Shown piece by piece: positions 53,069-57,214 of a stretch of DNA of 64,000 nucleotides. The DNA comes from Mobula hypostoma (taxonomy: Eukaryota). The position numbers and the translations under genes are program-made. Each line of letters starts with the position of its first letter. The first letter of the stretch is position 1. The DNA lies in NCBI RefSeq assembly GCF_963921235.1, contig NC_086097.1:44518001-44582000 (forward strand), written 5' to 3'. The notes under the pieces are model-generated. The model saw only the letters and a list, made by a program, of their open reading frames with translations. It did not search any database and was not told the origin of the DNA.

Positions 53069-54766
53069 CACTCTGGAAGGTCTTAAGGTGGATAAGTCAC
53101 CTGGACCAGATGGACAACATCCCAGAGTCCTGAGAGAGGTTGCTGAAGAGATAACAGATGCATTGGTCATGATCTTTCAAGAATCACTTGATTCTGGCAT
53201 GGTCCCGGAGGACTGGAAAATTGTAAGTGTCACTCCACTCTTTAAGAAGGGAGGAAGACAAAATTGATGAAATTATAGGCCAGCTACTCTAACCTCAGTT
53301 TTTGGGAAAGAGTTGGAGTCCATTATTAAGGATGAGTTTTCGGGGTATTTGGAGACTAATGATAAAATAAGTCAAAGTCAGCATGGTTTCTCTAAAGGGA
53401 AAATTTCCCTGACAAATCTGTTAAGAGTTCTTTGAGGAAGTAACAAGCAGGGTGGACAAAGGGGAGGCAGTGGATGTCATTTACTTAGATTATCAGAAGT
53501 CATTTGACAACATGAGGCTGCTTAACAAGATAAAATCCTATGACATTACAGGAAGGATACTGGCATGGATAGAGGAATGGTGACAGGCAGGAGGCAGCAA
53601 GTGGGAATAAAGGGGGCTTTTTTCAGTTGGCTGCCAGGAACTAGTGGTGTTCCTCAGGGGTCAGTATTGGGACCGCTACTTTACACATTGTTTGTTAAAG
53701 ATTTAGATAATGGAATTGATGGCTTTGTGGCAAAGCTTGAAGATAATACAAAGATAGGTGGAGGGGTAGGTAGTGCTGAGGAAACAATGTGATTGCAGCA
53801 GGACTTAGACATATTGGAAGAATGGGCAAAAAGTGACAGATGGAATACAGAGTTGGGAAACGTATGACAATACATTTTGGTAAAAGGAACAATAGTGCAG
53901 ACTATTATCTAAATGGGGAGAAAATTAAAACATCAGACGTGCAAAGGGAGTTAGGAGTCCTTGTGCAAGACTCTCAGAAGGTTAATTTATAGGTTGAGTC
54001 TACGGTAAAGAAGGCAAAGGAAATGTTGGGATTTGTTTTAAGGGGAATAGAATATAAAAGCATGGAGATAATGCTGAAGCTTTATAAGGCACTAGTCAGG
54101 CTGCACTTGGAGCACCATCAACGGGTTTGGGCCCCTATTCTCAGAAAGAGAGAGAGTCCAGAGGAGGTTCACAAGGATGATTCTGGAAATTAAGGGGTTA
54201 ACATATGACGAGCATTTGTCAGCTTTGGGCCTGTACTCAGTGGAATTTAGAAGAATGTGTGGGGATCTCATTGAAGTCTACCAAATGTTGAAAGGATTGG
54301 ATAAGGTGGATGTGGAGAGGATGTTTCCTCTGGTGGGGTATCCAGAACTAGAAGGCACAGACCCTAAATTGAGGGGCGACCTTTTAGAACAGAAAGTAAG
54401 GAGGAATATTTTTAGCCAAAGAGTGGTGAATCTGTGGAATGCTCTGCCACAGACTCAATGGGCTGAAGGGCCTAATTCTGTTCATATGTTTTATGGTCTA
54501 AATAGATTAAGGTGTGGTCTTAGCCATCTTTTCCCCTTTTTCTAAACTTGTAAGTTTATGTTATCAAGAATCTTGTCTGTTTTGCATGCTGTTGGGAATT
54601 TTATCGGGCAGGGAGGAGTTCTGAATTGCTCCCATTTGACCACTGCAGATTAAATATTTATGTGGTGCTTCCAGGAAGTCTAGTGTGGTAGGGTAGTGGG
54701 TAGTACTTGTCACTTTCACTTTTAGCTTCCACCACTGGCTAGCAATCTTGCAAAAAGGAGAGCTGA

Positions 54767-54880
54767 ATGTGTCAGTCTCTCCCTGCCAGTACACAGTCTC
54801 TGTAACAGCAAGCCTCATGCAGTGCCTCCTCGCTGGTGACACACGGAAACTGAACTCCTTCGGTCTCAGGCAGAACTACA
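54767..54880 (+). ncRNA. HDV-like self-cleaving ribozyme motif (slightly decayed)
   Basis: P1 (A)TGTGTC 54767-73 / GACACAC 54838-44. P2 TGCAGT 54818-23 / ACTACA 54875-80 (5 of 6 pairs). P3 GCC/GGT around L3 TCCTCGCT. P1.1 CC/GG 54845-46. P4 CTGA.AC/GTCTCAG. J4/2 G-CAGA with candidate catalytic C54871. Confidence 0.75.
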
Positions 54881-55268
54881 GAGGCCGGGGAGGAGGTCTG
54901 GCCCCTGCACACACATAGTACACAGACCCATCGCTGTGTGGACGCGCCCTGGTGCTCGTGAACCAGATCCCCACATAGGCAGCCTCAGGAGAGACGAAGA
55001 CTATGATAGTAATCCCAGAAAGCAAATCCGGAGTGGAGCCCCTCAGGCGGCTGGACATCATTGAACATCCTTCCGGCAACTCCTGCAGCCAAGCTGGTGC
55101 CAAACGTATTGCTTCATAAGCTTTTCTTCGGACTACACTGGTGAGACCGAGAGGGGGACCTTGACGACTGGGCATCTCAGGATATCCATACTTTTCAGCC
55201 TGGCTTGTGATGATGATGACCATCACCCATTGTCCTTCAAGGCAGTCGGATGCCTACCACCACCACCA
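54767..55268 (+). mobile_element. Short non-autonomous RTE-derived element
   Basis: Starts with an HDV-like fold, carries the RTE-type 5' motif GAAAGCAAATCCGGAGTGGAGCCCC (recognised from memory of RTE families), and ends in an (ACC)n tail. No coding capacity. Confidence 0.6.
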
Positions 55269-57214
55269 AATGTTCAAAGAGGAATTCAGTATTTTTCTAC
55301 AGAAAGGAGAGCCATCAGCTTTCTGAACCCTGGTGGCACTTGTGCTCTGCTAAAGTAAGATATTTGATTTGAGCTGGTGAGACCAGTGCATTTTTGATGT
55401 TCTAACCATCTAATTGTAACCTCAATAGATTAAGTTCAGAAATAAAATAATCTATAAATTAGCAGGACTAAGACTCCATTGACAGTGGTGAAGCAGCATG
55501 GAGGAGGGAACCAGCATGTGCTATTTGCCAGTGAAACAACATTTATGGATGTTCCATTTCATTTGCAATAATTAATGATGCTGGCACTTCTTGTGGTCAG
55601 AAAGTCAAGTACTAAAAAAAAGGCTATTTAAGTTTGAATGTAGGATTGGTGGCTGTGTTGGAGGTAGGGCAAGATTACTTTGCTTTATTACTATAATTCA
55701 ATATGTAAAACAATGGATATGTAGAGTGCTGTCTTTATACCAACTCAAAGGAAAGTGTGCTGAAGTTTCCAAGACAAATAAAAGCAAGAAAAGATTTCTA
55801 CTTATATTGTCAAAGTATTTACGAAGAACCAAAAGCCATACATTTTTAACATGAAATATTGATAGAATGCTGTAGTTTGAAACTGAAACCAAGCCCTTAG
55901 TAAATTCTAGTATCTGTGCTTTCCCTATATGTGATATAAAATATCAGTGTGTGCATATATGGGAAAAATTAAAAAATGCTCCACACAAAAGGCACTTTGA
56001 AATGACTTGAATATTCAATCGAGTCTGCCCTAATATAAATGTTTGGTACTATTGCATGGCACGGTTATTGTTTAGCCTTGCAATTGGCACAACATCCTGT
56101 TTTATTCTAAAATCCTATAATCATCTAACTGCTGACTAACTATGTGAATAGAGTCTTGTTTCATGCTTATATCTCCAGTTTTATGAAGGATTTTCCTTTG
56201 CAGTTTAATAATCAGAAATCTATAACAAGGAAAAGATTATAGAAAATCCAGGGCACATGTACAATGAGATTTTATCTGTGTGAATCTAACACACTGCTGT
56301 ATTAGTAGGAGGGCATTTGCAAAAAGAAGAAGAAAAGGTAAAATTTGACCACAGTGAAGGATTCTGACAAGAAATCTAAGTGCTGTTGCACTGTAAGCCT
56401 TATGTGGGTGATTCAACATACAAATTGTGACATATTATGTCGCTATAGTTGAACATAGCAGGAAGATCTGGACTGCAATCAGGATAGGACTGTTAGTACT
56501 TATAATACACATATGGAGACAATCTGTTGGGGGAGAAACTAACCATTTCCCACTGACATTGAATGGGCAAATCATTATCATTTTTTTGGATTAAAATTGA
56601 CTAGCAATGTAATTGGACTAACACTATGAACACTGCAGATACAAAGTGGGCCAGAAGTTGTATTTTCTATAGCGATGGAATCACCTACTAATTCTCCAAT
56701 TCTCTATCTTTATCAATTAGATGCCAAATGAGGAATAAAATATACTTCTGGTGCAAAACCAAAAATGACTGAAAAGACTTCATTTCATGAAGAAATGAGC
56801 TGAAGAATTTATATAACAATAACAAACTTGTTTCACTTTGGTGTTGAAAATTTACTTGAAGCTAAAATTAATATTCACAAACTACGTAATTTAAATGACA
56901 ATTCTTCTGACAATACCATGTCTCCACTGACATTGGACCAAACTACACTAACTCTACACAATACTTGTCCACAGTCCTTACATACACACATAGAAGCCCC
57001 ACAAGCTTTGGTGATATTCTTCATTATAGCATTACATCACGCAGATATCATGTACCAACCTTACCCATGCCTGGCAGATGGTGGAGGGAATAAATGGCTA
57101 CAGTGGCAAATGATGGACCAAACAGCTTTGTTTCCAGTTCCTCTGTGCAAAATCAGAGCAGGCAGTGAAATAAAACTTTAAATTCCCTTTGATTTGAGTC
57201 AGAGAGAGATACAA

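Follow-up and report, generated by a model that had tools for sequence, protein, structure and literature searches.

The DNA window analysed here, a 64,000-nucleotide stretch of the Mobula hypostoma genome, contains an old, dead copy of a non-coding, SINE-like retroposon of about 632 nt that carries an HDV-like ribozyme module in its interior. HDV-like ribozymes are 5' processing devices of non-LTR retrotransposons, and ribozyme-bearing elements of this type are well known. In the present family, the module, which is canonical except at the two ends of P1, is a built-in internal part of the element and is not what defines its 5' end.

When the window sequence was read directly, an HDV-like double pseudoknot with every helix present was found at 54767-54884 (Table 1). 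The 13 contiguous bases GCCTCCTCGCTGG at 54824-54836 match the core of the HDV ribozyme, whose sequence was taken as printed in 10.1101/2020.06.25.172429. P1 comprises six pairs (tgtgtc at 54768-73 with gacaca at 54838-43), and A54767 faces C54844. J1/2 measures 44 nt (54774-54817) without counting the CCTC extension of P2, P2 itself (tgcagt at 54818-23 with actaca at 54875-80) contains one C.A mismatch, P3 is gcc/ggt and P1.1 is cc/gg, and J4/2 (C54871-A-G-A) lies directly 5' of the P2 3' strand. An earlier note on this DNA had assigned the P3/L3 core, the 44-nt J1/2, P3, P1.1 and J4/2 in the same way and had stated that all helices of the double pseudoknot can be built in order, and on all these points it was right. 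Its description of P4 needs to be revised: the 1-nt deletion assigned to that helix is instead a gap in the P4 loop (ctcc-ttcgg in the window, CTCCTTTCGG in the family majority), and the proposed pairing with gtctcag depends on a window-specific A-to-T change at 54864. Sequencing contigs aligned to the window show the family-majority letters at the sites of window-specific change near P4.

Table 1. Features of the retroposon copy and its ribozyme module, in window coordinates
Feature	Position	Strand	Remarks
Window copy of the 632-nt SINE-like retroposon	54678..55259	+	blastn, family positions 26-632
Leader	54678..54766	+	family positions 26-114; 5' of the predicted cut; conserved in the family
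Hairpin ggagag(c)...(g)tctctcc	54757..54782	+	spans the predicted cut site, competes with P1, present in the MFE fold
P1 5' strand	54767..54773	+	+1 is A54767; C54773 window-specific, family majority A
J1/2 insert	54774..54812	+	39 nt when the CCTC extension of P2 is taken as paired
P2 5' strand	54813..54823	+	cctc, bulged a, then tgcagt; C54820 breaks the pair, family majority T
P3 gcc, L3 tcctcgct, P3' ggt	54824..54837	+	sequence read
P1 3' strand gacacac, then P1.1 gg	54838..54846	+	
P4 hairpin	54850..54869	+	ctga/tcag plus tcc/gg(t); loop 1 nt shorter than that of the family
J4/2 g-C-a-g-a	54870..54874	+	C54871 is the candidate catalytic cytosine
P2 3' strand actaca plus gagg extension	54875..54884	+	
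3' body and tail	55085..55259	+	family positions 458-632; homologous to tRNA-derived SINE body/tail
(CCA/ACC)n microsatellite tail	55260..55268	+	ccaccacca

The significance of the motif was evaluated by a shuffle test, in which 100 nt 5' of the core and 54 nt 3' of it were permuted and the core itself was held fixed. P1, P2, the CNRA motif and P4 arose jointly in 5 of 20,000 trials, and the 13-mer has a single occurrence in the 64-kb window; the motif is therefore not a product of chance, and we regard it as real. The Rfam search with HDV-like models that the earlier note had proposed gave no match: no ribozyme family was found in the whole window at the gathering score, and at E values up to 10 no HDV_ribozyme, CPEB3 or drz match was obtained on segments of 901, 281 and 131 nt. 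The nested MFE folds were no better than those of shuffled sequences (z = 0.48 and -0.38). The MFE fold of the near-majority copy L062 recovers P2, P3 and P4.

The host element was characterised by searching the 3.48-Gb genome. A 601-nt query returned 3,025 first-look candidates, the best 40 of which were scored and showed 78-85% identity, and the copy number of the family is well over a thousand. With a 632-nt family profile built from 25 copies, nhmmer extends the window copy to model position 6 (window 54658), and the first ~25 nt of the family are diverged or lost in this copy. Its length is about 600 nt, as compared with 632 nt in the family model, and both exceed the ~500 nt that had been estimated for the element. 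At non-CpG sites the window copy differs from the family model by 10.4%, which places it among the most diverged copies. No Pfam family scored above the cut-off in the five open frames of L062 or in the open frames of the window copy. The evidence supports a non-coding, high-copy retroposon with a well-formed HDV-like motif. The (ACC)n tail, also claimed earlier, is present at 55260-68, and the tail of the family as a whole is a short (ACC/CAA)n. Of 55 full-length copies, 20 are bounded by target-site duplications (TSDs) of 8-15 nt that directly adjoin position 1 and the tail; when flanks were swapped between loci as a control, the mean was 0.9 and the maximum 4. The family is thus short, non-coding, TSD-flanked, provided with a LINE-type 3' tail and present in high copy number, as is typical of SINEs.

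Homology to a classic tRNA-derived SINE (L026:330-626, plus strand), over its body and tail, extends along family positions 458-628, and positions 332-582 are common to another family (L024:566-821, minus strand). Hence, the 3' half of the element is a common SINE body and tail, and the segment at 55085..55259 is presumed to be the LINE-recognition end. The SINE at L026 has a clear A box, GGCCAAGTGGTTAAGG, and a clear B box, GAGTTCGAGCCCC, and ends in (TTTAA)n, not in (ACC)n. The element at L024:540-1085 (minus strand) belongs to a second non-coding family which has positions 332-582 in common and a different 5' half; by eye, this half reads GCC-TTCACGTGT-(GGCATAGTTCTTATGCC hairpin)-T-GGC-GGAGCTG, with GAGCTCC upstream. 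For the RTE descent proposed in the earlier note, no partner LINE turned up, and the early-ending copies L066, L077 and L044 proved to be internally deleted or interrupted and not LINE junctions. In DNA run X1, the summed contig depth shows a 3-4 fold peak over window 55062-55119, a body segment which is probably common to further repeat families. Just 5' of the element, window 53581-54514 holds another interspersed repeat, which also occurs in the flanks of L008, L012, L028 and L029 in either orientation.

The position of the 5' end was established from several samples. In 29 paralogous loci aligned by blastn, homology starts at 54678-54699 in 28 loci and at 54736 in the remaining one, in no case at 54767, and ends on the 3' side at 55217-55279. 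Full-length copies reach about 25 nt further 5', where the alignment reveals the common start GGTGTCAAAATGG. The element's 5' end in the family model therefore sits 114 nt upstream of where the cut is predicted, between positions 114 and 115. When the leader alone was used as query, the ribozyme followed it in 29 of 29 further loci. A leader-blind sample was drawn with a 209-nt query starting at 54767, which cannot favour copies with a leader, and comprised 29 other loci, five of which coincide with loci already sampled. Twenty-five of these copies start at model positions 2-14 and the remaining four are truncated at positions 33, 64, 82 and 92; not one begins at the cut site (115). Genome-wide counting gave 213 occurrences of the ribozyme-start 18-mer preceded by the leader sequence GAGCTGA, and four in which it is preceded by four non-leader bases, a pattern that requires all four to be unlike the leader and that about a third of random flanks would satisfy. 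Two of the four hits are explained by 1-nt deletions and one by a 13-nt deletion within the leader; the last is a copy truncated ~3 nt 5' of the site (about -3) and abutting another repeat.

From these 5'-end and junction counts it follows that AATGT, which had been taken for a TSD, is internal sequence, that the boundary of the element lies further upstream, and that the transposing RNA retains the leader. The ribozyme does not head the element as had been supposed, since 114 nt of conserved leader precede it and the TSDs adjoin the first base of that leader (20/55 copies); nor do 5' ends pile up at 54767, with 0 of 29 leader-blind copies and 4 leaderless against 213 leader-bearing junctions. 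A cut at or upstream of the element's 5' end, as in the R2/L1Tc type, is not what is found here. Because paralogues start well upstream and G1 is not restored in the family majority, two outcomes that had been named beforehand as decisive against it, the 5'-processing model fails.

The majority leader holds an 11-mer, TAGTGTAGTGG, which we take to resemble a pol III box A. ARAGORN detected no tRNA gene in 8 loci, and Rfam matched nothing on the leader, with no likeness to tRNA, 5S or 7SL RNA. The family model has no TTTT run where ~1.6 would be expected, which is weak evidence at best. The idea that the leader is a degenerate duplicate of the ribozyme was rejected, as 160 of 500 shuffles align equally well. 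An alternative P1 formed by the terminal GGTGTC of the element was also discarded on inspection: it has 5 bp and is 2 nt out of register with P1.1.

To describe the module across the family, each ribozyme position was counted in 82 distinct copies, drawn from the best-scoring 40 per search. The module occupies family model positions 115-233, and the nested order of P1, P2, P3, P1.1 and P4 is present both in the window copy and in the family. The majority form GCCTCCTCGCTGGCG gives 15 contiguous bases identical to the HDV ribozyme, covering P3-L3-P3' and the first base of P1'. The majority P2 is a perfect TGTAGT/ACTACA, so that the single mismatch of the window copy is repaired by the consensus as the earlier note had anticipated, and, with one A bulged out, CCTC/GAGG can lengthen it to 10 bp (6 + 4). 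The majority P3 is GCC/GGC, L3 is TCCTCGCT, P1.1 is CC/GG, and P4 is CTGA/TCAG plus TCC/GGA. J4/2 reads G-C-T-G-A, with C at the catalytic position (C220) in 73/82 copies. The L3 U and G of the reverse wobble are likewise present, U175 in 75 copies and G180 in 64, with CpG decay to A in 14.

The two ends of P1 depart from the canonical form. At +1, 64 copies have A, 16 have G and 2 have C; at position 7 of P1, 62 have A and 15, including the window copy, have C. The majority P1 consists of five Watson-Crick pairs flanked by A1.C37 (115-192) and A7.G31 (121-186); a G at +1 in a G.U or G-C pair and a P1 of about 6-7 bp are both missing from it. The A54767 that had been interpreted as a lost G1 is indeed there, but the family majority does not restore the G. 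Position -1 is A in 79/82 copies, and GGAGAG(C) of the leader pairs with (G)TCTCTCC just 3' of the P1 5' strand, with the cut site inside the resulting hairpin. Copy L062 has G1 and all other ribozyme elements intact, and L085 alone among the 82 copies has a perfect 7-bp P1. According to a genome-wide pattern count, the 35-nt stretch from P2 to J1/4, which includes three CpGs, is unchanged in 29 copies only. Genome-wide, only 5 occurrences of the core 13-mer are followed by another P1 3' strand, and the core motif is confined to this family.

In the alignment of 81 copies, 85.5% of the cells are paired in register, versus 20-39% when the partners are slid. Shuffling of the partners gives 85.4%, with 126 of 500 shuffles as high as the observed value or higher. 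Covariation, which the earlier note had proposed as a check in P1, P2 and P4, is thus not seen beyond shuffles, because the copies are products of neutral decay. Subfamily markers alter the P2 5' strand, which is CGTCGT in five copies, all on contig C82, and TGCAGT in the type of the window, as against TGTAGT in the majority. The P2 3' strand is unchanged in both subfamilies. As these changes are uncompensated, the source genes were not maintaining P2.

The CGTCGT copies L070, L074, L075, L084 and L090 all lie within ~9 Mb of contig C82, which suggests local amplification or a chromosome-specific burst. The pairs L049/L050 (C52, ~165 kb apart) and L033/L046 (C1, ~2 Mb apart) have private changes in common, an example of such a change being a 5-nt insertion ACAGA in J1/2, and look like the outcome of segmental duplication, not of separate insertion events. 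At L025:2009-2191 (minus strand) there is a tandem partial duplication of family positions ~101-184, from the cut site through L3.

On the family sequences, we give about an even chance to the reading that the module is a relic or attenuated form derived from a ribozyme-headed ancestor, which sits behind an acquired leader and does not make the transposing 5' end. The source sequence of the family carried a complete HDV-like module at 115-233 with a 5-pair P1, a 44-nt J1/2, a P2 of 6 + 4 bp, an HDV-identical P3/L3 core, P1.1, P4 and a J4/2 of C-U-G-A. Such a module was most likely inherited from the 5' end of a LINE or from an internally deleted derivative of one, and the ancestor would later have gained a leader, possibly a promoter. 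After that gain, cleavage would have become a liability and would have been weakened in the successful source genes by the mismatched pairs that flank P1 on either side, the A at -1 and the leader hairpin over the cut site; the intact RNA would therefore be the form that is copied. We infer this ancestor: the genome-wide pattern revealed no leaderless relative starting at +1, and no LINE carrying the ribozyme was found, the 13-mer with another P1 3' strand being limited to the 5 occurrences given above. The 16 of 82 copies with G at +1 and the perfect 7-bp P1 of L085 speak against a relic.

The majority catalytic core, intact save for the ends of P1, would fit a still-active or a still-used fold equally well. 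An active ribozyme in source-gene RNA might release the 114-nt leader from the body, keep down the level of full-length SINE RNA or cleave host transcripts with copies in them, while the cleaved RNA would not be retrotransposed. We consider this possible, though unlikely. It would agree with the presence of every canonical element in the family majority, with the 35-nt core stretch that is intact in 29 copies, with natural copies such as L062 (G1) and L085 (7-bp P1), which look fully competent, and with R2 ribozymes, which still cleave with a 4-bp P1 and a J1/2 of hundreds of nt (PMC3774820). However, the majority A.C at the cleavage-site pair together with A at -1 makes a weak HDV context, A ranking third of the four bases at -1 for HDV (PMC1874588). 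Moreover, copies starting at +1 would be expected from cleaved RNA and essentially none exist, and the subfamily changes in P2 are uncompensated with no covariation to offset them. Alternatively, the double pseudoknot may have been retained for a structural role or for binding a protein, for example that of a partner LINE, so that cleavage would be irrelevant; the R2 protein binds R2 5' RNA. The constancy of the core, P3, P1.1 and P4 between subfamilies while the P1 ends are mismatched would be consistent with such a role. P2, which is needed for the fold, nevertheless varies between subfamilies uncompensated, and no partner LINE or protein is known for the family, so we regard this role as rather improbable.

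The two remaining explanations are extremely improbable. That the ribozyme forms the 5' end of a promoter-less element of ~500 nt, with AATGT as its TSD, was the proposal of the earlier note; it is favoured by the motif itself and by nothing else, and it conflicts with a leader that is part of the element, with TSDs that flank this leader and with the lack of 5' ends at 54767. A chance resemblance in a GC-rich repeat would account for the lack of an Rfam match and for MFE folds no better than shuffles, but it is hardly compatible with 5/20,000 flank shuffles on top of a 13-base identity with HDV (15 bases in the majority), or with a family majority that improves the fold.

In a cartilaginous fish, a high-copy element thus has a canonical-looking module, unseen by Rfam models, fixed in place 114 nt into its sequence. 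The literature searched describes no such module placed internally, after a conserved leader, in a SINE-like family of vertebrates that Rfam misses; it contains no link between HDV-like ribozymes and shark or ray SINEs, and the one paper in it that mentions both HDV-like ribozymes and sharks deals with R2. As a relic, the module would record how a promoter-less, ribozyme-headed element turned into a SINE-like one with a leader. As an active module, it would be a novel arrangement, and vertebrate transcripts would contain a scattered reservoir of delta-type ribozymes. That this is a SINE-like family with a competent ribozyme behind its own leader, whose G1 variants (L062, L085) would self-cleave, seems unlikely to us on the present sequences. 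Should they do so, the element would shed its leader or cut the host transcripts in which it sits, putting the delta fold to a new use, and domesticated vertebrate ribozymes such as CPEB3 could plausibly have come from elements of this kind.

Like the CPEB3 ribozyme, the module is an HDV-like fold in a vertebrate genome inside transcribed non-coding sequence; according to PMC4836649, CPEB3 is single-copy, conserved and proven active, whereas the present candidate is a multi-copy, decaying repeat known from its sequence alone. With the genomic HDV ribozyme it has in common the 15-base identity of the majority (13 in the window), the P1.1 GG and the C-N-R-A motif. It differs from genomic HDV in having A.C (or G-C) instead of the G1.U37 wobble, a 44-nt J1/2 and other P1, P2 and P4 sequences, and in being a genomic repeat and not a viral RNA.

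The closest parallels are found among retrotransposons. As in the R2-type 5' ribozymes, the helices follow the nested double-pseudoknot order, the catalytic C lies in a CNRA J4/2 and a long J1/2 is tolerated. According to PMC3774820, J1/2 loops of 216-498 nt and a P1 of 4 bp are tolerated in R2 ribozymes, whose active-site letters have converged on those of HDV, so that a long J1/2, a short P1 and an HDV-identical active site are all known in retrotransposon ribozymes; the Drosophila R2 letters equal those of HDV, as do the present ones (PMC3774820; PMC3185411). Unlike this family, R2-type elements are cut at or upstream of their first base, which defines the transposing RNA, whereas here the predicted cut lies 114 nt inside and the upstream part is retained. 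The R2 SIDEs (PMC3414825) and NARTc of T. cruzi (PMC3383444) are likewise short, non-coding elements that combine a LINE-type 3' end with an HDV-like module. In contrast to SIDEs and NARTc, which start with the ribozyme, the present family has an extra conserved leader; it also differs from both in its dispersed insertions, its variable TSDs and a 3' body common to tRNA-derived SINEs.
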